Notes under the pieces: generated by a model
Told to the model about the DNA's origin: nothing
Database searches by the model: none
What the model saw: only the letters and a program-made list of their open reading frames with translations
Part shown: positions 249 to 21,625 of the stretch, piece by piece
How positions within the stretch are numbered: position 1 is the first letter of the stretch
Layout: every line of letters starts with the position of its first letter
Source: a virus
Lineage: Duplodnaviria > Heunggongvirae > Uroviricota > Caudoviricetes
Strand: one strand, 5' to 3'
Length of the DNA: 21,625 nucleotides
Virus record (IMG/VR): IMGVR_UViG_2563366928_000011
Translations under genes and position numbers: made by a program

Positions 249-536
249 TTACTGTCTCTGGCAATCTTTATCGCGATAACGCCTGAAGTACCCTCTCGCT
301 TCCTCATCCATACCAAGAGCCGAATGAGTCCGCTTAACTGCCTGTCTTAAATCTCCGAATCTGTCTGTAGTTGCTGGTGGGCGTGCCGCCTTACGGATAC
401 ATTCAGAGCGTCTGTTTGCTGCATGTTCACGTTCTTTATCGCCATCTGCCAGCATCATGACTTCTGCCCATCGTGCGGCAGCTCTCCGGTATAGCCCTTT
501 TGACTCCAGCTCTTCAGCTTTCCTGTCCTTTATCAT
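249..536 (-). CDS. PerC-family (Pch-like) transcriptional regulator, putative
   Basis: 95-aa ORF. The N-terminal segment EELESKGLYRRAAARW resembles the conserved core of PerC/Pch prophage-borne regulators (from memory, not searched). ATG at 536 is preceded by GAGG and a TATAAT-like box. Confidence 0.55.
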   Translation of the reverse strand: MIKDRKAEELESKGLYRRAAARWAEVMMLADGDKEREHAANRRSECIRKAARPPATTDRFGDLRQAVKRTHSALGMDEEARGYFRRYRDKDCQRQ

Positions 537-570
537 TTCTGCCTCTCAGATTATATAGATAAGCAAAAAG

Positions 571-690
571 GTGTTGGTTCAGTTGGTTCAATTTGTAAAG
601 AGCGTTGTTTTTATTGTGTTTTTTCTAAAATATTGAACCAACATCAACTCATTTTGAACCAACACAGCCCAGCTCTGAACCAACAACACA
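571..690. promoter_or_regulatory. Operator-like repeat array in divergent intergenic region (TTGGTTCA x2 inverted; TGAACCAACA x3 direct at 21-bp phasing)
   Basis: Read directly: TTGGTTCA at 574-581 and 583-590; TGAACCAACA at 634-643, 655-664 and 676-685. Lies between the divergent starts at 536 (minus) and 787 (plus). Confidence 0.5.
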
Positions 691-786
691 GCGATAGATT
701 TGCGATTGGTCCGTTATTTTCTGGCTGATATTTGAGCGTATAACAGTGTTATACAGTGGTATACTGTATGGATATTACTCACTGAT

Positions 787-1227
787 ATGGTCTTTGCAAT
801 GAGCAAATCTAATCTGATCGCGTTCCGCATCCCATCTGAATTGCAGGATGAGTTTAATCGGTCTGTTCTCGCTTCTGGAGGGGATAAAACCTCCTGGCTT
901 GTTGATGCGATTCGCATGAAGCTGGGACAGCCGGAAAAGTCTATTGATTCACGAATACTTGGGCTGGTGGAGCGCATGGAAAAAGCCGCAGCATCGCTTA
1001 TTGCCGGAAAGCCGAACACCCCACCAAAGCCATATAACGAAACGGCAGTTATAAAGATCATTGCCGATACCATCCGACAGGGATTTGATAATGGGCGTGT
1101 GATAGCTGAACGGCTCAATGAAGCAGGCTACCAAACAAAAGCTGGTAAAGCGTGGGATAAAGACATTTACAGCGCGTGGAAGCGTCAGGGTAACAATATT
1201 AAAAGAATCAATACGCTGCTTCAGTAA
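787..1227 (+). CDS. Hypothetical DNA-binding protein (RHH-like N-terminus, recombinase-type DNA-binding motif at C-terminus)
   Basis: 146-aa ORF, the only convincing plus-strand gene in the left half. LIAFRIPSELQDEFNRSV looks like a ribbon-helix-helix strand plus helix. VIAERLNEAGYQTKAGKAWDKDIY resembles the recombinase-domain DNA-binding motif. No clear RBS; start could be the internal ATG at 799. Confidence 0.5.
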   Translation: MVFAMSKSNLIAFRIPSELQDEFNRSVLASGGDKTSWLVDAIRMKLGQPEKSIDSRILGLVERMEKAAASLIAGKPNTPPKPYNETAVIKIIADTIRQGFDNGRVIAERLNEAGYQTKAGKAWDKDIYSAWKRQGNNIKRINTLLQ

Positions 1228-2279: not shown

Positions 2280-2610
2280 ATGCCTGAAATCGGCGGCGGA
2301 GAAACAGAGGATCGGGCTCGGTTGCCTGTAACTCTATCCGAAGTTATCCACATGTCAATGCACAGTTACTTAGGAAACTAACATAGGTACTATCATCACT
2401 CACGAAAAACCACTATATGTGGTTTTTATTCATATCGTTATCCACTACAGGCTGTGTCAATAACTTTTACCTATTAATTGGGTAATTTCTACATTTTCCT
2501 ATGCTGTCTAGTTTCTCTACTGAAAAGTTGGCACTCCTTAATCGCTTTTCGGTTAATACTATCGGTCTTCATATTGCCAGCAGCATACGCCATCCGATAA
2601 TTTCGATGCT

Positions 2611-2995
2611 ACGCGCGCGTACTTGTCGCAAAATATCAGGCAAAGGCCAGATTCAGAACGTCGTGATAACCACCAGCACAACATGAGATGTCATGTAACA
2701 CGATTTATCACATCAGATACATGTGATTGGTGTACCCGCATAAAACATCGTCATAGCGCGTCCTGTGCGCATATACGCCGATAATCAACACATCACCACC
2801 ACTCTGTCTCGTGTAGAGAACAGTTTCATGGTATCCCCCGCCATCGTGTGCGTACTGGTCGGACGTAGTTGCAAAAATTTTGCAACTGATACCCCTCGCG
2901 CGCGTACTGGTCACGAAATTGGTGTTTTGCTGTGGCAGTGATATCAGAAAAATCTTCCTGTTTCACATAAAGCGGATATGCGCGTACTGTAACGG
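2611..2995. repeat. Four dispersed copies of a GCGTACT(G/T)GTC motif in a noncoding stretch
   Basis: Read directly: GCGCGTACTTGTCG about 2615-2628; GTGCGTACTGGTCGG about 2848-2862; GCGCGTACTGGTCACG about 2898-2913; TGCGCGTACTGTAACGG about 2979-2995. Lies in the ORF-poor 2280-3126 interval. Confidence 0.35.
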
Positions 2996-3126
2996 CCCCA
3001 TCAACTGGGAGCGGATTTGAGCCCCGAATGTGTAGGCAATGTCACTTAACGTTTGTCGCATACCTTCCAGAAAAAGCGATTCATGAATAATAGGGGCATG
3101 AATGCCCGGCGTACCGGGCTTATTAG

Positions 3127-3975: not shown

Positions 3976-6702
3976 CTATTCCCATTCGCTAACATCTTTC
4001 ATGCCACTGAGGGTAGCTACAATCCCGGCCCTTGTCAGTTTCACGAATTCTTCAGCCCCAACGGCATCACGAATTGCTTTCATGGCAATTTTATTGGCCG
4101 AAAATCGTTTCTCTGCTGCGGCGATCGCTGCTGGTGATGCCCCTGCGCGCACTGCTTTTGTAGCTTCCTGAACGGCTTTCTCTATCGCATATCGACCACT
4201 TCTTGTCGCCCCAATCTTAGCCACAGCATTTCTTAGCGCGCCACCAGCAACCAAACCACTTATCGAACCAATTACACCACCGCCAAAGCCTCCAGCGATC
4301 GCACCTGACTGTTGAACTCCGTTCATAATCACGCCGACGATCTTTGGAAGGCCTGAATCGAGCGTTTTGAGAGCCTCAGTTGTTCTTCCCGTGCGCTCTA
4401 CGTATCGCTGCGGTCTGGTACTGGCTTTAGCGAGTACACCGAACTCTTTCATCATTCTACCGAGATCTGGCGCATGACGACTGATGGCGTTTACATTCTG
4501 CTGGGTCATGAGCTTGGCAAAATACTGGATACCTGACTCTTCACCGATTCCTCCCTTCTCTCCCTGCGCCACAGCATGCTGAAGAATAGATGCTATTGCA
4601 GGTTGGCGTTCTGCTTCCGGCAGCGCGGAGATAAGACGGTGAAAAGCTCCCGTTCCAGTGTTTGCGGATGCCTTAAGCGTATCGGCACCTTTTCTTACCA
4701 TAGCGTCTGATGCGAGATCTCGACCAAAAACAGATTCGGCATTTTGTTTGGCGATAATGTAACTTTTAGAGAGATCGTTAGCTTTCTGCCATTCTGTGAG
4801 GAAGTTTCCTTTTTCAGCCATGATGCGCATGTCATCAGTGATAGCTCTGCGCATTTCTCCGGCAATCCGGGCGGCATTGGCCTTACCTGCCCGGGTGTTT
4901 GCTTGTTCAGCATCAGCAAACTTAGTACGCCATGCCTTCATCCCGTCGAAGGTTATGCCGCCACCTTGGTTGTTGGCAGCCTGAAACTGTTTCATCTCCG
5001 GGCTGAGTGGAACATTGGCTGCTTTTTCTGCTTGGACGACAGCCATCCCATTACTCATTTTCATCCTTTCGCGTGGCATCGTGCTTCGCAGTTCTGCCCA
5101 TGCCATATTCTCTGCTGTTTTCATATCACTGAGGCTCGCGATGATGCGCTCTTTAATTGCTGCGCTTTTTTCTGATGCGCTTCCAGACTCAGCACCGAAA
5201 TCAGACAACTGCTTATTCAACTTTGAGGATATTTCATTGAAGGCCGTAAGGTGAGCATCCTGAACATTCCCAGGAGTTGATGCCAGAACACCTTCTGCTT
5301 GGGCAATTCCACGACTACCTGAGCGCATTCCAGGCGTCAGGGTGTTGATATTAATACCAGTGATTTTCGCCGCCTTAGCGACATCATCTCTGACGTTTGA
5401 TGCCTGCGATGCGATATGCTCTCGGCCTACGGCAGAACGCGCTGCTTTCGATACATCATTGGCGGTTTCCAGAGTATTTGCTGCCCCTAACACATGGCCT
5501 GATTGATTTGTATTACTCCGCAATACATCTCGCATTACGTCACTGGCTGTCTGTCCGCTCTTTATTAAAGCGCGTGCTCCTAGCGATCCTGCTAGGCCAA
5601 TACCTGTCTCTTTTGCTAGGTCTTCTGGGCTGATCTGCCCGTTCTTTTGGGCGTTCACCAATGTACCTGGCAGGTTTTCTGCCAACATACTAGCCACCTT
5701 TGTGGCCGCACGTTCAGCACGTGGAGCGTTGGCAACTGAAGAAGCTGCGGTAGCTGCCTTTCCTGCACCTAATCCTGTAATAAGGTAAGGTGCTAGCTGC
5801 TCACCAGCCTGCGCGTATGGATCTGTAGGTTGGTCTACTGGGCGAAAGACAGGTGATATGGGCGTGTATGTGCCATCACCCACACCAAGCTTCTGAGCTG
5901 CCCATGCTCCGGCTGATTGCGCCGCATTGACTACCCCCACGCCTGCGTCCATTACATCAAACGGTATATTAGCAATCCCTCTGGCCATCTGCTCTGGCGC
6001 AGCTTTCAGTCCTGGCGAAAGATATTCCATCTCAGGATTAAGGTTAGACTTGGCTACTTGCTGCTGCGGTTCCCCGGCATTTTCATCGGCGAGAAACTGA
6101 GCTCTTTTCTGCTCCCATGAACTGGCTGTTGGTAGTCCTGCTTCTATGTTCTTAAATTGCTGACGTTTTGCTTCCCATGCAGAAATATCTCCCACCTGAG
6201 AGATTTCTTTATCAAGCTCTGAGTAGTCAGGCTGCTGAAGATTGCGATGTTGACTGGTTTGTGCAAACTGCAAGATTTCACTGTCATCAGGGATTATTCC
6301 GGCATCTGCAAATTTACTTACGTAATTAGCCGTTTCATCTGGCAGTGTAGATTTACCGTTTCTGACGGCATTAATACGAGCATAGCCAGAATTATACCCA
6401 GCCAATGCCATACCTATATCACCAAATCGCTTCATTCCTTTATTGAGATGGTTTGCTGCGATATCCATTTGCTTTTCAAATGGCAGTGAGCGCGGATCTG
6501 TTCCACGATAACCAGCATCACTCATTACTGAGGGCATCAGTTGAGCAAATCCTCTAGCTCCTTTCGGTGACTCGGCACTTCCGTTACCACTAGATTCATT
6601 GCCAACTAATGTTTCCATCGTCCCTGATGGGAAACCATATTTTTCATCGAGATGACGGGAATAGGCTTTCTGTTTTTCTGTCAGTTGTGCCATCATTGCC
6701 AT
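3976..6702 (-). CDS. Large virion/ejection-type protein with N-terminal SLT lytic transglycosylase domain
   Basis: 908-aa ORF. N-terminus carries SLT-like motifs (GNESSGNGSAE..GARGFAQLMPS and ALAGYNSGYARI). Long Ala/Gly/Gln-rich helical remainder. Last gene of a four-gene cassette; start overlaps the stop of the upstream gene. Confidence 0.75.
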   Translation of the reverse strand: MAMMAQLTEKQKAYSRHLDEKYGFPSGTMETLVGNESSGNGSAESPKGARGFAQLMPSVMSDAGYRGTDPRSLPFEKQMDIAANHLNKGMKRFGDIGMALAGYNSGYARINAVRNGKSTLPDETANYVSKFADAGIIPDDSEILQFAQTSQHRNLQQPDYSELDKEISQVGDISAWEAKRQQFKNIEAGLPTASSWEQKRAQFLADENAGEPQQQVAKSNLNPEMEYLSPGLKAAPEQMARGIANIPFDVMDAGVGVVNAAQSAGAWAAQKLGVGDGTYTPISPVFRPVDQPTDPYAQAGEQLAPYLITGLGAGKAATAASSVANAPRAERAATKVASMLAENLPGTLVNAQKNGQISPEDLAKETGIGLAGSLGARALIKSGQTASDVMRDVLRSNTNQSGHVLGAANTLETANDVSKAARSAVGREHIASQASNVRDDVAKAAKITGININTLTPGMRSGSRGIAQAEGVLASTPGNVQDAHLTAFNEISSKLNKQLSDFGAESGSASEKSAAIKERIIASLSDMKTAENMAWAELRSTMPRERMKMSNGMAVVQAEKAANVPLSPEMKQFQAANNQGGGITFDGMKAWRTKFADAEQANTRAGKANAARIAGEMRRAITDDMRIMAEKGNFLTEWQKANDLSKSYIIAKQNAESVFGRDLASDAMVRKGADTLKASANTGTGAFHRLISALPEAERQPAIASILQHAVAQGEKGGIGEESGIQYFAKLMTQQNVNAISRHAPDLGRMMKEFGVLAKASTRPQRYVERTGRTTEALKTLDSGLPKIVGVIMNGVQQSGAIAGGFGGGVIGSISGLVAGGALRNAVAKIGATRSGRYAIEKAVQEATKAVRAGASPAAIAAAEKRFSANKIAMKAIRDAVGAEEFVKLTRAGIVATLSGMKDVSEWE

Positions 6703-8012
6703 CCCTTAAGTTTTGCCTGATAGTAACTTTCCGGCAGATAGCCATGTGCGGTCACATAATCCTTAACCAGTGAAGGATCCTGCAACAGCATTTTGGTATC
6801 AGTTTCTTCGTCCTTAGATTTGGTTACAGGAATACCGAGCCCGGCAATCTGTCGTTTCTGCATTCGAATAATTACGTCCTGCGCTTTATTCAACTCTCGC
6901 AAAAATGCCTCATTGCTGGTTGCTGACTTAATGCCATTTTGAGATTGCATAAGGGCAGCCCTTTCCCCTTCGGTTGGGTTAGAGCCAAAAGTCCCTTTGA
7001 GGCTAGGCAGAATAACCTTTAGGTTGTATTCATCAGCTTTGGCGCGTAGGCTTCGTGTGTCTTCTGCTACATCAGGAAGGAATCCAAACCCCAGCGTCAG
7101 GGGGTTATAGTTCTGCGAGCGGGTAACGGCCGAAGGATGTTTCCCTACAATTCCCGCCAGTTCATGACCCACTTCAAGCGCAGAGTTCAAGGAGTCGATG
7201 TTACCTGCAACAGTATTAATTTTATCGTTCATCTTCTCCACTTTCGCCTGCTGTACCTTGCTCAGTTCAGCATTGAGCTTGTCTCTCTCGATGTCATTTT
7301 GAGCACGTCCAAGTCGTGCTTTCAGAACCATTTCTCTCGTGCGTAGTTGGTTATCGGATAGGACTTTGAACTGCTCCATATCGAGACGTCGATTACCCTG
7401 TTCCGCATTAACCTGAGCATTATATGCGGATGTATCTGCGTTCTGCTGTGCAATGCTCTGCCCTTGCTGCTTCTCTTGAACACTAAAGTAACTATTTGGA
7501 TCAGCATGGAGGTGGATGAGGTCAGTGATTCTGTTGAATTCCTGTGGGTCATTCTGCCAAGACTGATAAACCTCTTCAGCAGGAAGACCAAATCGCTGTA
7601 ATACTGGATTTGCCTGCTGAATGGCCTTCTGCATGATCAGTGGATCTCCAGTTTGTGACGCAAGACGCAGATTCATGGCAGCGTCAGCGGTCTGTCGATT
7701 TTGCTCAGCATCAATGAATCCCATCTGTTTTTGAGAATCAGCCATAAACTGGGGATACTGGGCCATTAACTTCTGCACGCCAACACGATCATTATTAGCT
7801 ACCGCACTACCCAACCGTGCCTGATATTCTTTTAACTGCTGGGAAATTTGCGCCTGCTGATTAATCTCAGCAACGCCTCTTAGCCCCTGTAGCGCCATTA
7901 AACCTACGTTTGGCTGCTGCTGATACTGCACAGGCTGAGGAACGGAAGAACGAGGAGCATTATCATTTTGCGGTGCCATGCTAGGCAGCCCGCCAAGTTG
8001 CCATGTCGCCAT
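6693..8012 (-). CDS. Ejection/DNA-transfer-type protein, putative (P22 gp20-like by size and position)
   Basis: 439-aa ORF. Q/A/N-rich, predicted coiled-coil character. Tightly packed between the 225-aa and 908-aa genes. Assignment rests on architecture, not on a search. Confidence 0.6.
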   Translation of the reverse strand: MATWQLGGLPSMAPQNDNAPRSSVPQPVQYQQQPNVGLMALQGLRGVAEINQQAQISQQLKEYQARLGSAVANNDRVGVQKLMAQYPQFMADSQKQMGFIDAEQNRQTADAAMNLRLASQTGDPLIMQKAIQQANPVLQRFGLPAEEVYQSWQNDPQEFNRITDLIHLHADPNSYFSVQEKQQGQSIAQQNADTSAYNAQVNAEQGNRRLDMEQFKVLSDNQLRTREMVLKARLGRAQNDIERDKLNAELSKVQQAKVEKMNDKINTVAGNIDSLNSALEVGHELAGIVGKHPSAVTRSQNYNPLTLGFGFLPDVAEDTRSLRAKADEYNLKVILPSLKGTFGSNPTEGERAALMQSQNGIKSATSNEAFLRELNKAQDVIIRMQKRQIAGLGIPVTKSKDEETDTKMLLQDPSLVKDYVTAHGYLPESYYQAKLKGWQ

Positions 8013-8689
8013 TAGAATCCAAGCCCCCCAACAAGACCAATAAGCCCACCACCAATAGCGCCGGCCGCAGTTCCTATTCCAGGAACAACGGAACCAAGTT
8101 GCGCACCCGCTAAAGCGCCTGATGCTGCCCCACCAATACCACGCGCAAGACTGGATGGCTGCTGCGCCTGACCTGCACGAATAGCGCCAAGCCCCTGCAA
8201 GAGTTGTCCGGTATTATTGGCGTAGTTTTGCCCTGCCGTTGCCTGCCCTGATGCCGCATTCATCCCGACATTTAGCAGGTTTCCATAATTTTGCATTTGC
8301 CCACTGAGCCAATTGTTATAAAGCATGGGCGCAATGGAAGATAACTGGTTACTGGTAGCTGTTGAGCCAAGCCCCCCGGTAGCTTCTGCTGAGACAAGGT
8401 TCTGATAACGGGCCTGATCTGCCTGTGTTTTATATAAACCAGAACCAAAGAAATCATTCGCGGCTTTATTCTGCCCTTCCAGAGTCATCAGTCCTTGCAG
8501 TTGTTGTAAAGCAGGCAATCCGACTTCTGCATACGGCTTGAGATTATTCATCACCGTATTCCACTGCTCGCGCTGCAAATCAATTGCCTGCTGCTGGGCC
8601 TTCGCCTGAGCTTTAGAGGCACCACCATCACCGCCTTTTTCGTATACGGCACGATTGAGATGTTTATGAGCTATATGGGTAATTAACAT
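8012..8689 (-). CDS. Ejection/DNA-transfer-type protein, putative (P22 gp7-like by size and position)
   Basis: 225-aa ORF. Gly/Ala-rich with hydrophobic Gly-zipper C-terminus (GGLIGLVGGLGF). ATG at 8689 overlaps the upstream stop as ATGTTAA. Confidence 0.55.
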   Translation of the reverse strand: MLITHIAHKHLNRAVYEKGGDGGASKAQAKAQQQAIDLQREQWNTVMNNLKPYAEVGLPALQQLQGLMTLEGQNKAANDFFGSGLYKTQADQARYQNLVSAEATGGLGSTATSNQLSSIAPMLYNNWLSGQMQNYGNLLNVGMNAASGQATAGQNYANNTGQLLQGLGAIRAGQAQQPSSLARGIGGAASGALAGAQLGSVVPGIGTAAGAIGGGLIGLVGGLGF

Positions 8690-9144
8690 TCGCTGAATTC
8701 CTTATATTGTTGCCGAGTTAACTGATAAAGCGTTACGCCGACGGGTTTACCACATCTGATATAAGCATCATCAAGGTGACCAACACGGGTAGCGCCAAGC
8801 AAACGGATAATTGCCCGTCCATATTTTGTGGTGTCAGGAACCATAGTGATGCTGTTAAGGAATGGTGAGTTTTCGAGAAGCCACTTGCAGAATAATCGAT
8901 GCCCTTGCAGTGCATATTCACCACGGAATCCGGGGTCGTACACCGCATGGCATTCAACAACGCTATGCCAGAAGTTACGCACTTCATGAACGCCAGCCAG
9001 CACTAATCCTTCGTAGATGCCGAGATATACCGCATCAGGCTTGATGTAGTACGTGTGCCCCGGCTCAACAATATTTTCGGTATTGCCTGGCTCGTTAAGA
9101 AAGGCCTGTAATCGCACAGGGTTATCAATAAATTTTAGTTCCAT
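8683..9144 (-). CDS. Hypothetical protein, first large gene of the ejection-like cassette (gp14-like position)
   Basis: 153-aa ORF with protein-like composition, 16 nt downstream of the small RHH-like ORF. No motif recognised. Confidence 0.55.
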   Translation of the reverse strand: MELKFIDNPVRLQAFLNEPGNTENIVEPGHTYYIKPDAVYLGIYEGLVLAGVHEVRNFWHSVVECHAVYDPGFRGEYALQGHRLFCKWLLENSPFLNSITMVPDTTKYGRAIIRLLGATRVGHLDDAYIRCGKPVGVTLYQLTRQQYKEFSEC

Positions 9145-9449: not shown

Positions 9450-9815
9450 TCGTTCTGTATGTCAGGTTTTGACAGGTTTTTTATGGACTCTAAAAACTAT
9501 ATTTATGGTGTCGCATTACTCTTCACGGCAGGTGCTTTTCAGTTCTGCCCTTGCTTCTGGCTCCATTGGTAATTTGATTCGCGATCAGCTATGCGGATGG
9601 TTTGCTGAACAGGCATAACAACATCTCAGAGGCTATTTTTTGAACTACGAAAATTTCGTAGGTCTCTCCTTCAAAAACGTCACGCCCTTGTACACTGGAT
9701 TTTACAAAAGTCTCGTAAAACTCTTTGCTGTTCTGGGCTACGTGCCAAACCGCAGCGAATACCTCCGTCTGCCAGATGAGCAAAACATACCTTATAAAGA
9801 AAATCGCTGTTTTTG

Positions 9816-9920
9816 CTGTACCACCTGTACCACCATGTCACAAACCCTTGTGTGGCGCGGCCTGCAGGTGGTACAGGTGGGTAAAAATGACCTCTCCCCA
9901 CCTGTACAGACCTGTACCAT
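9816..9920. repeat. Iteron cluster A (CTGTACCACC / GGTGGTACAGG motifs incl. 14-bp perfect inverted repeat)
   Basis: CCACCTGTACCACC at 9821-9834 and its exact reverse complement GGTGGTACAGGTGG at 9867-9880. Further copies at 9816-9825, 9898-9908 and 9911-9919. Confidence 0.55.
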
Positions 9921-9924
9921 TTAT

Positions 9925-10662
9925 TTAATTTTTACTCATAGCAGCACATAATCCCTTTTTTGAAATATTGAAAAATGCGTTCATTCTTCCCGCTGGCTTA
10001 ACCTTGTAGCCGCTTGCCACCATCGCCGCAATAAATGCTCCGTTGGGGATATAGTGCGGGTGATCACTGTGCTGGTGGTTTATCTGGTTATATCGCTCCA
10101 CTTCATGCTTCAACGTGTCAGATGTGGGGTTATCCTGCGGGAAGCTCTCAATCTGGGCATTACTCATCCCGTTGTCTCTGATCCATCTCAGGCAGCTTTT
10201 CGCCGATACGATAAATGACGGGTTATCAAGCGGTTTTTCCCAGTCCGCATTCCGGTTGTGGAGCGCCAGTCCGTCAAGGTTAAATTGTGGGTATTCAGCG
10301 GTAATTACTGTCACTGCGTGGCGGATTTCAGTCTCGTCACAACATGGCTCATCTCCCACACCAGCAGGGTAATAATCTGAACCACCGGGACTGATACAGC
10401 GTTTACCACTGAAAGGCCATTGCTTCGCCATTTCGGGTGTTGAGTGATTACCGTCGCTCCGTTCGCGCTGTGCCTCTGTCCACTGGCTGGCATATTCAGT
10501 AAATGAAACCCTTTGCCCCTGACGCATCCAGTGCGCAATCATAATTAAAGTGCGTTCCAGACTTTGGATGTCGCCAGCATTCCCGCACTGTGTAGCGAAA
10601 CTTTTTAATTCTTCGCGCTCCGTTCTGGTCATTCCCTGCGGTATGCAATAGTTATTGCTCAT
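9925..10662 (-). CDS. Hypothetical protein (245 aa), cargo gene downstream of primase
   Basis: ORF with Cys/His/Trp-containing, protein-like composition. Start ATG at 10662 overlaps the stop of the 76-aa ORF. No family recognised. Confidence 0.55.
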   Translation of the reverse strand: MSNNYCIPQGMTRTEREELKSFATQCGNAGDIQSLERTLIMIAHWMRQGQRVSFTEYASQWTEAQRERSDGNHSTPEMAKQWPFSGKRCISPGGSDYYPAGVGDEPCCDETEIRHAVTVITAEYPQFNLDGLALHNRNADWEKPLDNPSFIVSAKSCLRWIRDNGMSNAQIESFPQDNPTSDTLKHEVERYNQINHQHSDHPHYIPNGAFIAAMVASGYKVKPAGRMNAFFNISKKGLCAAMSKN

Positions 10663-10882
10663 GTTTTACCTCTCTGATTTCTGCTGCCATATCTGTTGGC
10701 TCTATACAGCCGTCCCGACTTGCCACGCAGGGAATAATGATTTCAACGGTATCGCCGTCAATACACATTTCAACATTCGCCCATGCCGCAATGGGTAGCC
10801 AGTCTGAACGCCCCTCAAACCGTAGCTGCCAGCCAGAGGAAGAAGCTAACTGGCGCACTTTGTAAAATGGTGTGCTCATCAT
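10652..10882 (-). CDS. Hypothetical small protein (76 aa)
   Basis: ORF translationally coupled to the 245-aa gene. Lies immediately downstream of iteron cluster B. Confidence 0.45.
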   Translation of the reverse strand: MMSTPFYKVRQLASSSGWQLRFEGRSDWLPIAAWANVEMCIDGDTVEIIIPCVASRDGCIEPTDMAAEIREVKHEQ

Positions 10883-10926
10883 TGGTTGTTCCCTCTCAGC
10901 CAGCCAGAAGAAATGCGTTTGTTAAT

Positions 10927-11029
10927 GGTATAGGTGGTACAGGTCTGGTATAGGTAAGATATTGACCTGTACCACTATAACACATTGTTTTTAATGATGA
11001 ATTAGCAAAGTGGTATAGGTGGTACAGGT
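10927..11029. repeat. Iteron cluster B (two direct copies of GGTATAGGTGGTACAGGT plus partial and inverted copies)
   Basis: GGTATAGGTGGTACAGGT at 10927-10944 and 11012-11029. Partial GGTATAGGT at 10947-10955. Inverted CCTGTACCAC at 10966-10975. Shares the 13-mer AGGTGGTACAGGT with cluster A. Confidence 0.55.
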
Positions 11030-11058
11030 AAAAACGATCTTCTTGTAAAAAGACTATA

Positions 11059-13413
11059 TTAAAAAACATCATAACCCCCCATACCGATCAGACGGGCAAA
11101 CGCAGCCTGTAGAACTCCGACCTCTGGTAGTTCGTAGAACACGCCATTCCCTCGGTCTGGTCTTCCATGCTTCACCAGCCCCATTTGTGCAAGTGATTTA
11201 CCCAGTAGTGATCTGGCAGCTGGTTCTTTAAGCTTTTCCCCACGCTCAAGCGACCACGCTACAAACCGACTAACCATATCCTTTGCAAACAAACGGACTT
11301 CGCCATTAAACGGAGGTTCATTGATTAGCTCGCCATAAAGAAACAATTCAACGCCAGACAGCCCCAGCAAGATTTCTTCACGTAAGGCATCGGTCTGTGG
11401 CGCTCGTTGAGGGTCAAAACCTGAGAGATCCACCCCTTTAAGATGCCAAAGCAACTTTGCGGCACCGCCATCATTAAGCCAACTGTACAGCCGATCAAAA
11501 TACTCCCGGCTCTGTGCTTTTTCAGGAGATGGCTCAAGCACGAGATAGCGACGCTCTCTTATCCCTGCCTGTAATACCTGTGTGCTGTTACTGGCAAATA
11601 TCAACCGGGCAAAATTCGGCATTGGTTCAGCATCAATTCCCTTGCGCTCAAGGTTAAACGTCGGTTCGCTAATAATCGCTTTAAGTCTGTCAGCTTCAGA
11701 CGGCTTGTGGATCGTCACTTCGTCAGCAAATACCAGTAGCTTGTTAGCAAGTATTGAATTGAAGCGCCCTGAAATATGTCCCGCCCCGTTAATGTGGGCG
11801 GCGTACTGCCCCAGTATTTGCAGCAGCGGTTTAACCGTTGTGCCTTTCCCTGTGCCCGGGACAGATTTCATCACGATTGCCACGGACGGTTTTTCATCAG
11901 GCTTTTGGATAATGTGCGCCATCCACTGGATAAGATATTGGTATGCCTCTTCATTACCGGCACAGACAACCTGCAACAGGTGATTAAGGTATACCGTGCA
12001 ATCTCCTTCAATTGGTTCCAGTGCCAGCCCCTCATACAGATTAAAAACATCGTCAGGGCATTTGTCTGGTACTGGATAAAATCCTACGCCTCCTGGCTTG
12101 TAGTTCTTCCCACTCCATGACAGCCACGCCGATCCCGCCAGCTTTCTGGCGACTCTCGGTTTATGATGAAAATAATGCTGAAATTGTGATAAATCCTCGA
12201 AAACGTGCGATACACCGCCGGTTTGAGAAGGCTTTAGCGACACCACCTTGTGTTTCCCGCCGATGGTGACATGCGTAAACGTCCGGTTGATTTCTTCGAG
12301 GACAGCAATTTCATCATCGCTTAACACCTCGCCAGAACTGATCTCATTCAGCGCCCCGACTGACTGTTTGTGATTTTTCACCTGCGCCCCTTTCCCCCGT
12401 GGCTGGTACATCGAATCTTTAAATGCTGCTGTGGCTGCCGCCAGCCCGTGTTGTTGGTGATAGTCGTTCCAGTCGGCTTTATAGTCAGTCGGTGGCAGAG
12501 ACACCCTGCCAGCTACGGAAATAGCGGCCCTCTCTGCGGCATCTTTCCCCGTGTTGATCCCTCCACTTTCTGAGTCTCCTTGCTGGTGATCGTTATCTGC
12601 GGCAATGATGATTTGTGCCTGCGGATATGTTCTGCGCATGACTTCCGCTACTGGCAACAGGTTGCCAGCGTCGATTGCTGCCACTGTCATTGCGTCAGGG
12701 CGAATTAAATGGCACGACAGGGCGGTAGCCACCCCCTCAGCAATTATGATGCTGTGAGGTCGTTTCTGTGCGTTTATGGCGTGATATGCCCCCCGCTTTG
12801 CCGAACCTGTCAGGAGTCTTTTTTCACCATGTGAGGTAATAGTCTGTGCTGCTGTGACTGCGCCGGATTTATCCACCAGCGCCAGCAACAGAGATCCATC
12901 GGGCAACACGGGGAATGTAAAATCACCTACCCCTTTCGCAACCAGATAATCAGATTTGCCGTTTACAGCCTTTCTGCGCATGTCATCAAACTGACGGGAA
13001 AACGTATCCCGTCTTTGTTGTTCGTCCTTCTCTGCCCTTTTCAGGCGCTCCTGTTCGCGTCGCTGGCGCTCGGTTTCCAGTTGTTCCCGTTTCTGGCTGG
13101 TGGCTTCTGGTGTTTCCGTTGTCCGGTAATCAATACCCAGAACATCAGCGGCAAGAAGCGCCGCCTCTGTTGTGTCGCAGTTATTTACGCGTTTAATTAA
13201 ATCCAGCCCATCACCAGCGCCGCACTGATTACAGATGAAGCTACCGCGCCCGTTGTCATCGAACCGGAATCGATCTTTTCCCCCACATGCAGGGCAGGGA
13301 GCATGACGGCGCGGAGAGTCAGGGACATTTATGTTCAGGCAGCCCAGCACATGAGGCCAGTTGTTTTCAGACGCACTGATAACCTGACGGATAAGATCAA
13401 TGTTTCGCATCAC
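11059..13413 (-). CDS. P4-family primase-helicase (zinc-binding + TOPRIM + P-loop NTPase)
   Basis: 784-aa ORF. Zn-ribbon CPACGGKDRFRFDD..FICNQCG. TOPRIM signature IIIAEGVATALS and AADND. Walker A VPGTGKGT in the C-terminal half. Likely start is ATG at 13410 after a GGGG RBS. Confidence 0.9.
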   Translation of the reverse strand: MMRNIDLIRQVISASENNWPHVLGCLNINVPDSPRRHAPCPACGGKDRFRFDDNGRGSFICNQCGAGDGLDLIKRVNNCDTTEAALLAADVLGIDYRTTETPEATSQKREQLETERQRREQERLKRAEKDEQQRRDTFSRQFDDMRRKAVNGKSDYLVAKGVGDFTFPVLPDGSLLLALVDKSGAVTAAQTITSHGEKRLLTGSAKRGAYHAINAQKRPHSIIIAEGVATALSCHLIRPDAMTVAAIDAGNLLPVAEVMRRTYPQAQIIIAADNDHQQGDSESGGINTGKDAAERAAISVAGRVSLPPTDYKADWNDYHQQHGLAAATAAFKDSMYQPRGKGAQVKNHKQSVGALNEISSGEVLSDDEIAVLEEINRTFTHVTIGGKHKVVSLKPSQTGGVSHVFEDLSQFQHYFHHKPRVARKLAGSAWLSWSGKNYKPGGVGFYPVPDKCPDDVFNLYEGLALEPIEGDCTVYLNHLLQVVCAGNEEAYQYLIQWMAHIIQKPDEKPSVAIVMKSVPGTGKGTTVKPLLQILGQYAAHINGAGHISGRFNSILANKLLVFADEVTIHKPSEADRLKAIISEPTFNLERKGIDAEPMPNFARLIFASNSTQVLQAGIRERRYLVLEPSPEKAQSREYFDRLYSWLNDGGAAKLLWHLKGVDLSGFDPQRAPQTDALREEILLGLSGVELFLYGELINEPPFNGEVRLFAKDMVSRFVAWSLERGEKLKEPAARSLLGKSLAQMGLVKHGRPDRGNGVFYELPEVGVLQAAFARLIGMGGYDVF

Positions 13414-15380: not shown

Positions 15381-16440
15381 TGGTTGCCCCCGTTTTTCCT
15401 GGCATTTCGCCACCTTCCAGCAGGAAATGAACGTCACGAACGGCGAGATCCAATATCGCGAGTAACGCCTTCAGTCTTTCGTCTCGTGAGGGAGAGTTGC
15501 TCACCAGAATGTCGTTAATCACTTCTGTCAGTGTGATGATCTGGCTTGTGCGTTCGAGGGGATCCATATGCACATCGTAGGTTTTAATCATGTGCCACCT
15601 CCATGCGGATACGACCAGCAAAAAAGCAGATGTGATCGCGCACCAGAGAACGGCGAGCATCGCGTTCAGACTCGGCAGCAATATGATGAATTTTGGCGGT
15701 AATTGTCGGGCAATCGCGGCGAACTGCGGCGATAATCCAGATAAATTGCGGTTTTTGGGTAGGGGTAGTAGCCAGCATGTGGCAGCCTCCATTCGATAGC
15801 ATGTAACGCTACCACCGGAAACGCCAATTTCGCTGGTGGTAGCCCAGACAGGGTTGGCGTAACCGGCTCGAATGGATACCGGCGCTTCCGAAGAAGCCCC
15901 TGCCTGAGCCACCATTGATTGACAAAGGCGCTGGATTATACACCAACGCCCAAAAAATGGGTGAGTCAGACCTACGACATAAAAAAAGACGCTCGGCGCG
16001 TCATATGTCGCCATTCGATTTACCAGGACGCCAATCCCGGCACCCGTTTTATGAGGTGCCTTATAACCATAAACCGTGTTGCCGCATAACGGCAAGCTCT
16101 TTTTTATGGACTCCGAAAACTCACTATTGGAAGAACCAGAAGCACAGTACATCGCGCTCATTTCGTTAACGTCACGCGCGTGGACGAATGTTTTTGTGGA
16201 GTCACTACACGAGCGGAAGACATCATCTACGACCAGAAATTTTCTGGCGCAGCCGCTGACCTTCTCAAGGCTAATATCATCGCCCGAGATTTCTGGTATG
16301 GTTAAGGCATCCGTTCCGACCACCAGCAAATGATAAACTTTGCTTGTATCTGCTGTATTAATGCCTGACTTTGCCGTCATATTTCTGGATTTTGGCGACA
16401 TGCCAGCCAGTGAAAATGTCTTCTTCTGGACGGGTATCAT
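15373..16440 (-). CDS. Hypothetical protein; long ORF of uncertain internal structure
   Basis: ATG at 16440 with GGAGG RBS and ATGA overlap with the upstream stop. First ~170 residues look protein-like. Residues ~170-283 are W/C/S-rich (junk-like). Last 72 aa are again protein-like with their own GGAGG RBS (ATG 15591). Confidence 0.4.
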
Positions 16441-18376: not shown

Positions 18377-18607
18377 GTAGAAGGCTCAATACACCTTCGT
18401 TTATAAAAGAGCGATTGCCCTTCTCCAGGGCTAACTGTTAAATAGCAATCCTCTGTGAGTTTTTATCAATCTACTCCCCTATACTTTAGTAAACCTCTGT
18501 ATACTTGTGGGTCTTCCCCTGTTGTGGTGGGTGGTACATAATTGAGTGATTTTCAAACACCACACAGTACCTTTATGGTGTCTCTTTTTACATGAGAGGG
18601 AATTCTT

Positions 18608-19126
18608 ATGAGTGTGCCGCAAACAAAAGCTGAACTGCTTTTAGCTATTGATAAAAATTTTAGTAAATTAATTAGTTACCTCAACACAATCCCACCAGAA
18701 ATTACTTCAGATAAATCAATGGACGGACACGCCAAAGGAACGGAGATGAGTGTTCGTGATCTCGTTTCGTATCTGCTTGGATGGAATGCTCTTGTTGTAA
18801 AGTGGATCGCTTCTGATGCTAAAGGTCTGCCTGTCGATTTTCCGGAAACTGGCTATAAATGGAATCAGCTTGGCCTTCTTGCTCAAAAATTTTACTCAGA
18901 TTACAGTGAGTTAAGTTATGAGTTGTTAGTAGCTGAACTTCAGACTGTAAAAAATGAGATTGTGAACCTTATTAATGATCGTACCGATGATATTTTGTAT
19001 GGAAGACCATGGTACACAAAATGGACGATGGGGAGAATGATCTCATTTAACACATCTTCGCCTTACGCCAACGCTAATGGAAGATTAAGAAAGTGGGCAA
19101 AAAATAATAATATCAGTTTAAAGTAA
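18608..19126 (+). CDS. ClbS/DfsB-family (DUF1706) four-helix-bundle protein
   Basis: 172-aa ORF. Matches remembered ClbS-type motifs (GHAKGT..SV.DLVSYL.GW, WN.LG.LAQKFY, GRPWYTKWT.GRMI.FNT.SPY). Lower GC than surroundings. Confidence 0.7.
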   Translation: MSVPQTKAELLLAIDKNFSKLISYLNTIPPEITSDKSMDGHAKGTEMSVRDLVSYLLGWNALVVKWIASDAKGLPVDFPETGYKWNQLGLLAQKFYSDYSELSYELLVAELQTVKNEIVNLINDRTDDILYGRPWYTKWTMGRMISFNTSSPYANANGRLRKWAKNNNISLK

Positions 19127-19144
19127 GCTTCAGAATGAAATTAT

Positions 19145-20365
19145 ATGGACGAAAAATCCCTCTATGCCCATATCCTTAACCTGACTGCACCATGGCAGGT
19201 TAAATCCCTTACCCTCGATGAAAATGCAGGTTCCGTTACTGTTACAGTCGGAATTGCTGAAAATACTCAGTTAACCTGTCCGACCTGCAGGAAATCCTGT
19301 TCTGTTCACGATCACCGACATCGTAAATGGCGCCACCTTGATACCTGCCAGTTCATGACATTAGTAGAAGCCGATGTTCCCCGCGTTATGTGCCCGGAGC
19401 ATGGCTGCCAGACTCTGCCTGTACCGTGGGCAGGTTCCGGCAGTCGGTACACTCTGCTGTTCGAATCGTTCGTGCTCTCATGGCTTAAAATCAGCACCGT
19501 TGATGCGGTCAGAAAACAACTTAAACTTAGCTGGAATGCCGTTGACGGCATCATGACCCGCGCGGTTAAGCGAGGCCTGTCGCGGATTAAAAAGCCTTTA
19601 TCAGTGCGTCATATGAATGTAGACGAAGTCGCCTTTAAAAAAGGGCATAGGTATATAACCGTGGTATCTGATCGCGACGGGCGGGCACTGGCATTAACCG
19701 ATGATCGTGGCACAGAGAGTCTTGCCAGCTATCTCCGTTCGCTTACTGACAGTCAGTTGTTGGCCATCAAAACACTGTCGATGGACATGAATGCGGGCTA
19801 TATAAGAGCAGCGCGTATCCATTTACCCAATGCGGTCGAGAAAATCGCCTTCGATCGCTTCCATGTGGCGAAGCAACTGGGCGAAGTGGTTGATAAAACC
19901 CGCCAGAATGAACATCCGCACCTCCCTGTTGAAAGTCGTCGTCAGGCCAAAGGTACCCGCTTCCTGTGGCAGTACAGCGACAAATGGATGACTGAGTCCC
20001 GGCAGGAAAAGCTGATGTGGTTGCGGGAACAGATGCAACAGACAAGCCAGTGCTGGACACTGAAAGAGCTGGCAAAAAATATCTGGGATCGCCCCTGGAG
20101 CACAGAACGCAGGAATGACTGGTTGCAGTGGATATCGCTGGCGTCTGAATGTGATGTGCCGATGATGAAAAACGCAGCGAAAACCATTAAAAAACGGTTA
20201 TACGGAATACTGAATGCAATGCGTCATCGCGTCTCGAATGGAAATGCGGAGGCGCTGAACAGCAAGATCAGACTGCTGAGGATAAAGGCCAGGGGATACC
20301 GAAACCGGGAACGCTTTAAACTGGGAGTTATGTTCCACTATGGGAAACTGAATATGGCGTACTGA
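19145..20365 (+). CDS. ISL3-family transposase
   Basis: 406-aa ORF. N-terminal C2C2 zinc-finger region (CPTCRKSC...CPEHGC) followed by a DDE-type core typical of ISL3 transposases. Bounded by the inverted repeats above. Confidence 0.85.
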   Translation: MDEKSLYAHILNLTAPWQVKSLTLDENAGSVTVTVGIAENTQLTCPTCRKSCSVHDHRHRKWRHLDTCQFMTLVEADVPRVMCPEHGCQTLPVPWAGSGSRYTLLFESFVLSWLKISTVDAVRKQLKLSWNAVDGIMTRAVKRGLSRIKKPLSVRHMNVDEVAFKKGHRYITVVSDRDGRALALTDDRGTESLASYLRSLTDSQLLAIKTLSMDMNAGYIRAARIHLPNAVEKIAFDRFHVAKQLGEVVDKTRQNEHPHLPVESRRQAKGTRFLWQYSDKWMTESRQEKLMWLREQMQQTSQCWTLKELAKNIWDRPWSTERRNDWLQWISLASECDVPMMKNAAKTIKKRLYGILNAMRHRVSNGNAEALNSKIRLLRIKARGYRNRERFKLGVMFHYGKLNMAY

Positions 20366-20410
20366 GTCTTCCCACCATGATCGGGGAAGACCCATACTTG
20401 TCCAGTTGTT

Positions 20411-21625
20411 TCATGCGTGTTTTTCAAACACCATATGCACCACATTTCCGCCATGCTCGAGAGAATCCATATAGTCGGCATACCATTGAAGCATCTCCCG
20501 CCTTCCATCCAGATATTGCGCATGGTTGTATGTGCCACGAATTGAGTTCTTATCAACGTGAGCGAGCTGCGTTTCTATCCACGCGGTGTTATAGCCCTGC
20601 TCATGCAAAATCGTACTCATAGTGTGCCGGAACCCATGACCAGTTACACGTCCAGCGTAGCCAATGCGCTTAAACACTTGGTTTATGCTGGCCTCGCTCA
20701 TTGTTTTCCTTGGATCATTGCGCCCGGGAAACATAAGAGGGTAATTGCCTGTTATTTCTCTAATCTTCCCAATAAGCGAAAGAGCCTGCTCAGACAATGG
20801 CACAATATGAGTCCGCCGCATTTTCATACGTGAAGCGGGTATCTCCCAGATAGCCTTGTTGAAATCAATTTCATCCCATAATGCGCCACGTAGTTCGCCA
20901 GTCCGCAAGCCGGTGATAATCAGTAGACGAGCCGCCATAACAACCAATGCGCTTCCTGAGTAACTGGACAATGCCTTGAAAAAATCAGGTAATTCTTTGG
21001 CTGTAAGGAAAGGGTAATGATTAGATTCATGGCCTTGCATCGCGCTAGTAAGGTCTGGTGCAGGGTTATACTCTGCGCGACCAGTGACTATTGCATAGCG
21101 GAAAACTTCCCCGCACCGTTGCCTCACTTTTTTGGCTTTTTCTGTAGCACCGCGCCCCTCGATGCGACGCAGCACATTCAGAAGTTCAAGTGGTTTGATT
21201 TCGGCGATGGGTTTTTTGCCAATGTAAGGGAACACATCTTTGTTGAAGGCTTCGAGGATGTCTGAAGCATAACCAGCAGACCATTTTTTTAATTTGCTGC
21301 TGTGCCACTCAAGGGCAATATCTTTGAAGGTGTTGTTTAACTGCGTTTCCCGGGCAATCTTTTCCTCTCGTTTCGCTTCCATCGGATCGATACCACCAGC
21401 GATACCTCTTTTCGCATCTTCACGTTTTGCCCTAGCATCGGCTAGAGTAACCTCAGGATAAACACCTAGTGCCAATAGCTTCTCTTTACCAGCTACACGA
21501 TATTTAAGTCGCCAGTATTTACCTCCATTAGGTTTTACCAAGAGATACAAACCGCCACCATCGGCCAGCTTGTAAGCCTTCTCTTTTGGCTTGGCTGTGT
21601 CTATTTGACGGGCATTGAGTTTCAC
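20411..21625 (-). CDS. P4-type tyrosine integrase (site-specific recombinase)
   Basis: 404-aa ORF reaching the window edge; GTG at 21625 may be the start. N-terminal arm-binding pattern AKPKEKAYKLADGGGLYLLVKPNGGKYWRLKYR. C-terminal catalytic region HGFRHTMSTILHEQG...RGTYNHAQY (Arg/His/Tyr). Confidence 0.9.
   Translation of the reverse strand: MKLNARQIDTAKPKEKAYKLADGGGLYLLVKPNGGKYWRLKYRVAGKEKLLALGVYPEVTLADARAKREDAKRGIAGGIDPMEAKREEKIARETQLNNTFKDIALEWHSSKLKKWSAGYASDILEAFNKDVFPYIGKKPIAEIKPLELLNVLRRIEGRGATEKAKKVRQRCGEVFRYAIVTGRAEYNPAPDLTSAMQGHESNHYPFLTAKELPDFFKALSSYSGSALVVMAARLLIITGLRTGELRGALWDEIDFNKAIWEIPASRMKMRRTHIVPLSEQALSLIGKIREITGNYPLMFPGRNDPRKTMSEASINQVFKRIGYAGRVTGHGFRHTMSTILHEQGYNTAWIETQLAHVDKNSIRGTYNHAQYLDGRREMLQWYADYMDSLEHGGNVVHMVFEKHA

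Follow-up and report, generated by a model that had tools for sequence, protein, structure and literature searches.

A phased 9-bp repeat array beside perC in an Escherichia coli chromosomal island: a probable orphan half-origin of the PICI/SaPI type

Which protein reads the phased repeats that lie between a perC gene and the gene of a 146-aa protein, and what purpose do they serve? The window, by which we mean the whole analysed stretch of 21,625 nucleotides, is nearly the whole of a ~20-kb, P4-like phage-inducible chromosomal island (PICI) of E. coli that is integrated at the tRNA-Thr gene thrW beside proA. Its gene content and one-directional layout match those described for Gram-negative PICIs, among whose listed accessory genes is perC (PMC6092414). 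Comparisons of this array with its relatives indicate that it is probably an iteron half-origin of the PICI/SaPI type that has been orphaned, i.e. that resides in an island without its cognate Rep in cis. The apparent operator of a neighbouring regulator would thereby be re-assigned to the replication of a phage satellite.

Geometry of the array

The intergenic region and its two flanking genes contain the following features.

249-536, minus strand: PerC-family gene (Pfam PerC, E=3e-33), start codon 37 bp from the tandem iterons
573-581 and 582-590, minus strand: tandem iteron set of two GTTGGTTCA 9-mers that abut (read as TGAACCAAC on this strand)
574-581 and 583-590: two inverted copies of TTGGTTCA, read within the 9-mers GTTGGTTCA
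591-633, no strand: AT-rich spacer of 43 bp (25-33% GC in 40-bp windows), the presumed DNA-melting region
634-643, 655-664 and 676-685, plus strand: three phased iterons TGAACCAACA, start-to-start distances of 21 and 21 bp, i.e. two helical turns
573-685, no strand: the whole unit, putatively module B, a half-origin with iterons of the kind paired with DUF927 Reps; tandem side toward the PerC gene, phased side toward cargo and Rep
738-769, plus strand: three 10-bp direct repeats and palindromes, GTATAACAGT GTTATACAGT GGTATACTGT, separate from the array
787-1227, plus strand: gene of the 146-aa protein, N-terminus ribbon-helix-helix-like by eye

The geometry given in the preliminary description was confirmed. 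TGAACCAACA starts at exactly 634, 655 and 676 with a spacing of 21 bp, and the two inverted copies of TTGGTTCA begin at 574 and 583, 9 bp apart, within 9-mers that abut. The tandem pair is arranged head-to-tail with a period of 9 bp and is inverted with respect to the phased set of three. Within the 21.6-kb window there are five exact matches to the 9-mer TGAACCAAC, and all of them fall into the 113 bp of 573-685. In dinucleotide-preserving shuffles of the window the mean number of copies was 0.19 and the maximum was 2; five or more copies were reached in 0 of 100 shuffles. The array is a genuine, non-random set of predicted protein-binding sites in helical phase.

The spacer opens with ATTTGTAAAG, which is conserved in the family of related arrays, and also contains TTGTTTT. 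Both elements are near-invariant across 16 unique aligned modules, and neither was used for selection. The count of invariant positions inside the repeats of these 16 modules is partly circular, because the modules were selected by exact matches. Most relatives contain three tandem copies, compared to two in the window; the third copy is present in L002, L003, L249, L332 and L333, and is mutated in L331. A possible degenerate sixth copy, ATTGGTCCG, which matches GTTGGTTCA in six of nine positions, is found at 706-714, 30 bp past the last phased iteron. This is roughly the position of the first oppositely oriented copy in compact double arrays. No structured RNA was detected by Rfam near 537-786. 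A literature search for the 9- and 10-mers returned just unrelated primer or oligonucleotide matches; the iterons drawn in Fig 2a of PMC6092414 lie outside the text searched.

Arrays, DUF927 proteins and Rep tails

Genome and viral-contig collections were scanned with the 18-bp tandem pair only, which returned enterobacterial and IMG/VR loci. Among these tandem-motif finds, 111 loci display the full architecture: two to four abutting copies, a gap of 34-64 bp, and then inverted copies at distances of 11, 21, 32 or 43 bp. The AT content of the gap averages 72% over 140 modules, and many loci contain 10-12 copies within about 280 bp. The spacings observed in the family uphold the earlier view of a phased protein-binding array; the operator function and the binder that had been proposed with it were not supported, as detailed below.

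For the survey of neighbours, ORFs within 3.5 kb of the arrays were clustered. The commonest neighbour is a protein of 704-943 aa, which occurs at 82 of the 111 loci. At all loci with an ORF of at least 400 aa from this top cluster, the product is a DUF927 protein and the array is located 3' of its gene (77/77); in 73 of these 77 cases the array starts 2-43 bp past the stop codon. The array-associated proteins share a C-terminal module of ~565 aa (60-90% identity) that contains DUF927 (E about 1e-47). The N-terminal attachment of this module varies between a P4-alpha-type primase and a short unrelated domain, and the array goes with the C-terminal module irrespective of the N-terminus. The DUF927 module matches 8tch, a solved 'Pathogenicity island protein' (E=2.5e-12), as well as 5dgk, the helicase of SCCmec. 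By this homology, the DUF927 protein is a replicative helicase and initiator of the SaPI-Rep type.

In order to avoid selecting on the array, 80 further viral-contig loci were gathered by the helicase core alone; 78 of them contain an intact gene and enough downstream sequence. At least three exact copies of TGAACCAAC, starting 24-39 bp past the stop codon, follow 71 of the 78 intact Rep genes. The seven exceptions are altered in the last ~35 residues of Rep and form four tail classes. Each of these classes has its own 9-mer, which is present in 8-12 copies and in the same layout. The following pairs of Rep tail and iteron were found.

GMLTPPxSGRG[YF]QRKSPRIxGRQ with iteron TGAACCAAC: 71 loci
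GMLTPSADGKKFQRKSPRIQGRQ with iteron TGAACCACC: L267
GMLTPPTSGRGYQGRVREGGRQ with iteron TGAGACAAC: L262
GMLEASQDRY[RK]RKALK with iteron TAACCCGT: L269, L270 and L283
GMLEPGKDRFKKKAVRV with iteron TGAACCCGT: L281 and L316

Across the 78 intact genes, each of the five tail classes goes, without exception, with one of five iteron classes, and the helicase cores are at least 78% identical. The 9-mer covaries with the C-terminal tail of the DUF927 helicase, i.e. with the presumed recognition region of the initiator, and not with the 146-aa protein or PerC. In SaPIs, specificity resides in the variable part of Rep. Such a one-to-one pairing is what one would expect of a 9-mer that is recognised by the Rep C-terminus, and TGAACCAAC is very probably an iteron of a DUF927 Rep. 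More precisely, it would be the recognition site of one DUF927 (SaPI-Rep-like) helicase class, read by the last ~40 residues. The Rep proposed as the partner of the window array has the tail that contains SGRGYQRKSPRI. If this holds, the tail-iteron code of five classes and five 9-mers predicts which islands cross-replicate or are incompatible.

A proposed split origin and the exchange of a cassette

In compact islands, rep is followed back to back by two modules, A and B, which make up one large, imperfect palindrome. The tandem side of module A points toward rep, and its phased copies are 11 and 21 bp apart; module B is inverted, with a gap of 43 bp and a spacing of 21 bp. Modules that combine this gap with 21/21 spacing mostly lie away from Rep (17 of 19) or constitute the outer half of double arrays. 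The window array has the spacing of module B, and it is oriented as in compact double arrays (e.g. L130) and in the split arrays of L249, L205 and L223, where two arrays lie ~8 kb apart. From this layout we infer that the window array is a module B that was parted from its module A by inserted cargo.

The remainder of the island is organised as follows.

3976-9144: P22-like ejection cargo, comprising DUF2824 (gp14-like), gp7, Inj_translocase (gp20-like) and a protein of 908 aa whose N-terminal part is an SLT lytic transglycosylase domain
9722-12573: cassette that differs from the sibling island L249 (10315-12427 therein), comprising the DUF5906 C-terminus, the GGTACAGGT clusters and two small ORFs
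9816-9919: second GGTACAGGT iteron cluster, ~1 kb from the first
10926-11032: presumed own origin of the island, ACCTGTACC/ACCTATACC iterons (GGTACAGGT/GGTATAGGT) in both orientations, flanking an AT-rich stretch, ~30 bp past the stop codon of the primase-helicase gene
11059-13413, minus strand: island primase-helicase with Zn-ribbon, Toprim and DUF5906 domains
15832-16059, minus strand: two Rfam matches within the region of the Ash-family gene, C4 antisense RNA at 79.5 bits and isrK at 67.1 bits
18509-20393: insertion of 1.9 kb compared to the otherwise identical L001 and L249, between the AlpA-like gene and int
20411-21625: P4-type integrase gene at the island end opposite perC

A gene for an AlpA-like HTH protein is located near the integrase gene, and an AntA/B antirepressor gene and the Ash-family gene lie between it and the primase-helicase gene. 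At the perC end, the order is lipoprotein gene, Abi_2 gene, 146-aa gene, array and PerC gene. The island contains no capsid or terminase genes. The ejection genes are an unusual cargo for a PICI and hint at a P22-like helper. Comparison of the region with 50,697 phage records by megablast and blastn gave no match; the element is a chromosomal island and not a catalogued phage. The insertion at 18509-20393 consists of a DUF1706 gene (18608-19126) and an ISL3-family transposase gene (19145-20365). The stretch 2280-3126 between the Abi and lipoprotein genes is poor in ORFs and contains GC-rich direct repeats CGCGCGCGTACTnGTC at ~2612, 2841 and 2893; a similar stretch is found in L003. In L001, both island ends carry the sequence ATACCCCCA(A/T)AAGTACCCCCA, at 19968-19988 and at 39765-39785, a little beyond the positions that correspond to the window ends; these repeats are candidate arm-type sites of the island integrase. 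A fragment of another integrase gene lies just past the perC end in L001.

The window array is located 10.4 kb from the stop codon of the primase-helicase gene and adjoins perC; it does not immediately follow an initiator gene. Residues 1-352 of the window primase-helicase are 85% identical to an array-associated Rep (L174), and the C-terminal 430 residues, which comprise DUF5906, have no similarity to array-associated Reps. A tblastn search for DUF927 across the window gave no match (E of at least 1.1). A cognate initiator does not accompany the array in the same element. The GGTACAGGT clusters at 10926-11032 and 9816-9919 are presumably the island's own two-part origin. The window primase was also considered as the user of the array; this reading was rejected because of the DUF5906 C-terminus, the primase's own GGTACAGGT iterons directly 3' of the gene, and a cassette swap in the sibling island L249.

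L249 occupies the same thrW site, and its flanks are 98-99% identical to the window (blastn). Its equivalent segment encodes the C-terminus of a 'TOPRIM and DUF927' Rep, WP_001719727.1, and a proximal TGAACCAAC array comes next; furthermore, L249 carries the same distal array beside perC. Since the two islands differ in one Rep/iteron segment, the initiator C-terminus and the iterons were exchanged as one cassette. Initiator and origin thus move together between islands that are otherwise 98-99% identical.

These findings probably reflect two events. In the lineage of the window, ~8 kb of cargo (the ejection, lipoprotein, Abi and 146-aa genes) would separate A and B, so that module B would come to lie beside perC. 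In addition, a DUF5906 helicase module, together with GGTACAGGT iterons of its own, would have taken the place of the Rep C-terminus and module A, and the distal array would have been left behind. With the cargo split and the exchange of Rep and module A, 573-685 would be an orphan half-origin. Such an exchange would strand half-origins beside perC, a virulence-regulator gene.

The DUF5906 cassette is present in 119 E. coli genomes; sequences in this species diverge too little to separate selective retention of orphan arrays from hitch-hiking. Together with the module that comprises perC, the array and the 146-aa gene, it occurs at two att sites, thrW and yicC-dinD (L331 and L332). The same module is also found in a degraded remnant (L333). 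At least some of the genomes with the DUF5906 cassette have no other match to the array region; the source genome NZ_OZ546925.1 has a second one. Relatives of the DUF5906 C-terminus in viral contigs amount to three identical loci, which are too few for a second covariation series.

Known origins and alternative explanations

In Gram-negative PICIs, the origin is the region immediately 3' of the replication gene, and the pri-rep-ori region of EcCICFT073 drives plasmid maintenance, which is lowered by deletion of the origin (PMC6092414, Fillol-Salom et al. 2018). In the CFT073 sequence, two CTGTCTACC units that abut open the tested origin 14 bp past the pri stop codon, ahead of an AT-rich gap and of copies in inverted orientation. 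The window array, with 573-590 and 634-685 on either side of its spacer, is of the same design with another iteron. EcCICFT073 and the array family have in common an origin 3' of a fused primase/rep, which opens, some tens of bp past the stop codon, with two or three 9-bp copies that abut. Both EcCICFT073 and the window island contain int, an alpA-like gene, pri-rep, late-gene cargo and perC. They differ in the iteron, which is TGAACCAAC in the window and CTGTCTACC in EcCICFT073. The partner of the array is a DUF927 helicase, whereas the EcCICFT073 protein is known here by its RefSeq label 'DNA primase family protein'. Moreover, the window copy lies 10 kb from the replication gene, beside perC, in an island with no cognate Rep.

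In the SaPI origin, which follows rep on its 3' side, iterons surround an AT-rich core (PMC6092414), and the array family is alike in this respect. Furthermore, the DUF927 partner family is homologous to the 'Pathogenicity island protein' 8tch. In contrast to SaPIs, the host clade and the length and sequence of the iteron are different, Rep is often fused to a P4-alpha-type primase, and the origin can be split by cargo.

The likeness to P4 concerns the primase N-terminus (Zn-ribbon and Toprim), which is 33-37% identical to P4 alpha, and the C4 and isrK RNAs of the window, which resemble the CI/seqA immunity RNA system of P4. According to the P4 annotation, crr lies 46 bp 3' of alpha and contains short iterons in both orientations; the array family is similarly placed. 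P4 uses two cis-acting iteron regions several kb apart, both of which it needs; L249, L205 and L223 have two arrays ~8 kb apart, which may or may not depend on each other. The type I iterons of P4, which are bound by the alpha C-terminal domain, have the sequence TGTTCACC, however, and not TGAACCAAC, and the helicase/DNA-binding module of P4 is unrelated to DUF927. An identity of the array with P4 type I iterons had been considered due to the resemblance of GGTGAACA to GTGAACCA, and was rejected; the P4 sequence and annotation show another site and another helicase module. Plasmid iteron origins and lambda ori combine phased repeats (~21-22 bp) beside an AT-rich unwinding element with a dedicated initiator. 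Compared to these origins, the initiator of the array family is itself a helicase of the SF3/DUF927 type, and the repeats are 9 bp long and include abutting tandem copies. The array is a known kind of element, a PICI/SaPI-type iteron origin, in an unusual orphan configuration.

In this reading, the two sets of the 9-bp site flank an AT-rich region that would melt. The array would not be expected to be fired by the island's own initiator; its binding, and perhaps its use, would require that a DUF927 Rep of the matching class be supplied in trans. The architecture of the arrays, their genomic association with DUF927 genes, the covariation and the cassette swap are established; binding by Rep, origin function, and the present inactivity or trans-dependence of the array are what we infer from sequence comparison. 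Two findings speak against an origin. The copy is ~10.4 kb away from the replication gene of the island instead of directly 3' of it, and the module of perC, array and 146-aa gene persists in many islands with the non-cognate DUF5906 Rep. This persistence could mean that the array has a Rep-independent role, such as control of the perC promoter.

The preliminary description had regarded the array as an operator for the 146-aa protein, which would control the divergent promoters of perC and its own gene by cooperative binding. The array indeed sits between the two genes, and the succession of a gene, the array and the 146-aa gene recurs across genera (L025, L045, L055, L084, L094, L111 and L124). 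Moreover, omega, ParR and other ribbon-helix-helix proteins bind short repeats arranged in arrays; Pfam detects only weak C-terminal matches in the 146-aa protein, to HTH_62 and Recombinase (E about 0.03-0.07). Against an operator stands the independent occurrence of array and gene. In L002 and L003, perC is followed by three copies in tandem and three in phase, whose spacers have diverged, without a 146-aa gene next to them; likewise, no match to the 146-aa protein was found in the sequence examined around most of the 77 Rep-adjacent loci. Conversely, the repeat is absent upstream of the orthologues in L133, L203, L170 and L156 (66-70% identical). All four retain an element GTATAACAnnGTTATACAGTGGTATAC, which corresponds to 738-769 of the window, and have cGTATAACAnnGTTATACAGTGGTATACTGTAT directly before the start codon. 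In the window, the repeats at 738-769 overlap an extended -10-like sequence TGGTATACT (757-765) just 5' of the 146-aa gene, and an element of this type sits immediately 5' of every 146-aa orthologue, array or no array. In other genera it is replaced by GTCTTACnnnGTCTTAC with GTCTTAC repeats, and the TGAACCAAC copies, where present, are unchanged. The promoter-proximal repeats thus change from GTATAACA to GTCTTAC, and the protein diverges to 50-70% identity, while the 9-mer is invariant and covaries with the Rep tail instead. Because orthologues without the array keep repeats of the 738-769 type, this element is a better candidate operator than the array, and it is likely the operator and promoter of the 146-aa gene. 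The repeats of a ribbon-helix-helix operator should overlap the promoter of the regulator gene and occur and vary together with that gene; it is the repeats at 738-769, and not the array, that stay and change with the gene. An operator function of the array for the 146-aa protein is very unlikely, and the 146-aa gene is cargo and not a partner of the array. Of the divergent setting that had been described, the location stands; a role in divergent promoters looks secondary, with the 146-aa gene as cargo between origin halves.

A related proposal, which we consider unlikely, is that the distal array is mainly the control region of perC and is bound by PerC, by a regulator of the island or the helper phage, or by the DUF927 Rep as an activator or repressor at the -35 position. 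It is favoured by the distance of 37 bp between start codon and tandem copies, which is the same in the window, L002, L003, L131, L162, L194 and L205, and by the retention of the module in islands with a non-cognate Rep. In addition, a good TATAAT lies upstream of perC (minus strand, ~550-555) with no recognisable -35 element, and the last iteron occupies the -35 position; a strict sigma-70 scan of 400-900 detected no canonical promoter pair. However, most of the arrays in the loci surveyed have no PerC-gene match nearby, and in compact islands (L208 and L219) perC is 0.5-1 kb away from the array. The architecture and the conserved spacer elements are identical to those of Rep-proximal origin modules, and nothing in the analysis ties PerC to DNA binding. 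A role in perC transcription could add to the origin assignment and would not displace it. A packaging site (pac or cos) or a partition centromere of the island is a highly improbable assignment, even though satellites need a packaging signal and R1 parC-type centromeres are phased repeat arrays bound by ribbon-helix-helix proteins: no terminase or partition ATPase match was found among the window ORFs scanned against Pfam, the array is tightly coupled in position and covaries in sequence with a replication helicase, and it matches the validated layout of PICI origins. Practically negligible is the probability of arm-type sites for the tyrosine integrase or an AlpA-like excision factor as part of attL/attR. 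The array is near the int-distal end of the island and arm-type sites, such as those annotated in P4, consist of short direct repeats, but the motif is confined to 573-685 and absent from the int-proximal end, so that repeats in both att arms near the core are missing. The array is separated from the island end by perC and a distance of more than 550 bp, and in compact islands it adjoins rep and not att. Another repeat, ATACCCCCAnAAGTACCCCCA (TACCCCCA), is present at both island ends of L001 and is the better fit. Integrase arm sites were rejected on these grounds.

The preferred reading, an orphan half-origin of the PICI/SaPI type, may be extended to its possible use, albeit in a form that we regard as rather unlikely as a whole. 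The palindromic A+B origin would be a preferred insertion point for cargo, and its halves, ~8 kb apart, would cooperate by Rep-mediated looping like ori and crr of P4. A stranded half would, as a decoy or handcuffing site, titrate the Rep that competing islands produce, or would allow replication in trans by a co-resident DUF927 island, or would couple perC expression to such a Rep. If the orphan sites still bind a foreign Rep, they offer a route for interference or cooperation between co-resident satellites; if they do not, the array is an ordinary origin of an already described kind.

Two further observations concern the 146-aa gene. In a check for RgdR, no called gene of the window, that of the 146-aa protein included, was found to encode an RGDR or RDGR motif; the matches to these motifs in the window are confined to a stop-interrupted frame and the transposase. 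In Pantoea coffeiphila (L045, 4438-6400), the unit of module B and 146-aa gene is tandemly duplicated; array and gene are each present as two identical copies at a distance of 1.25 kb.
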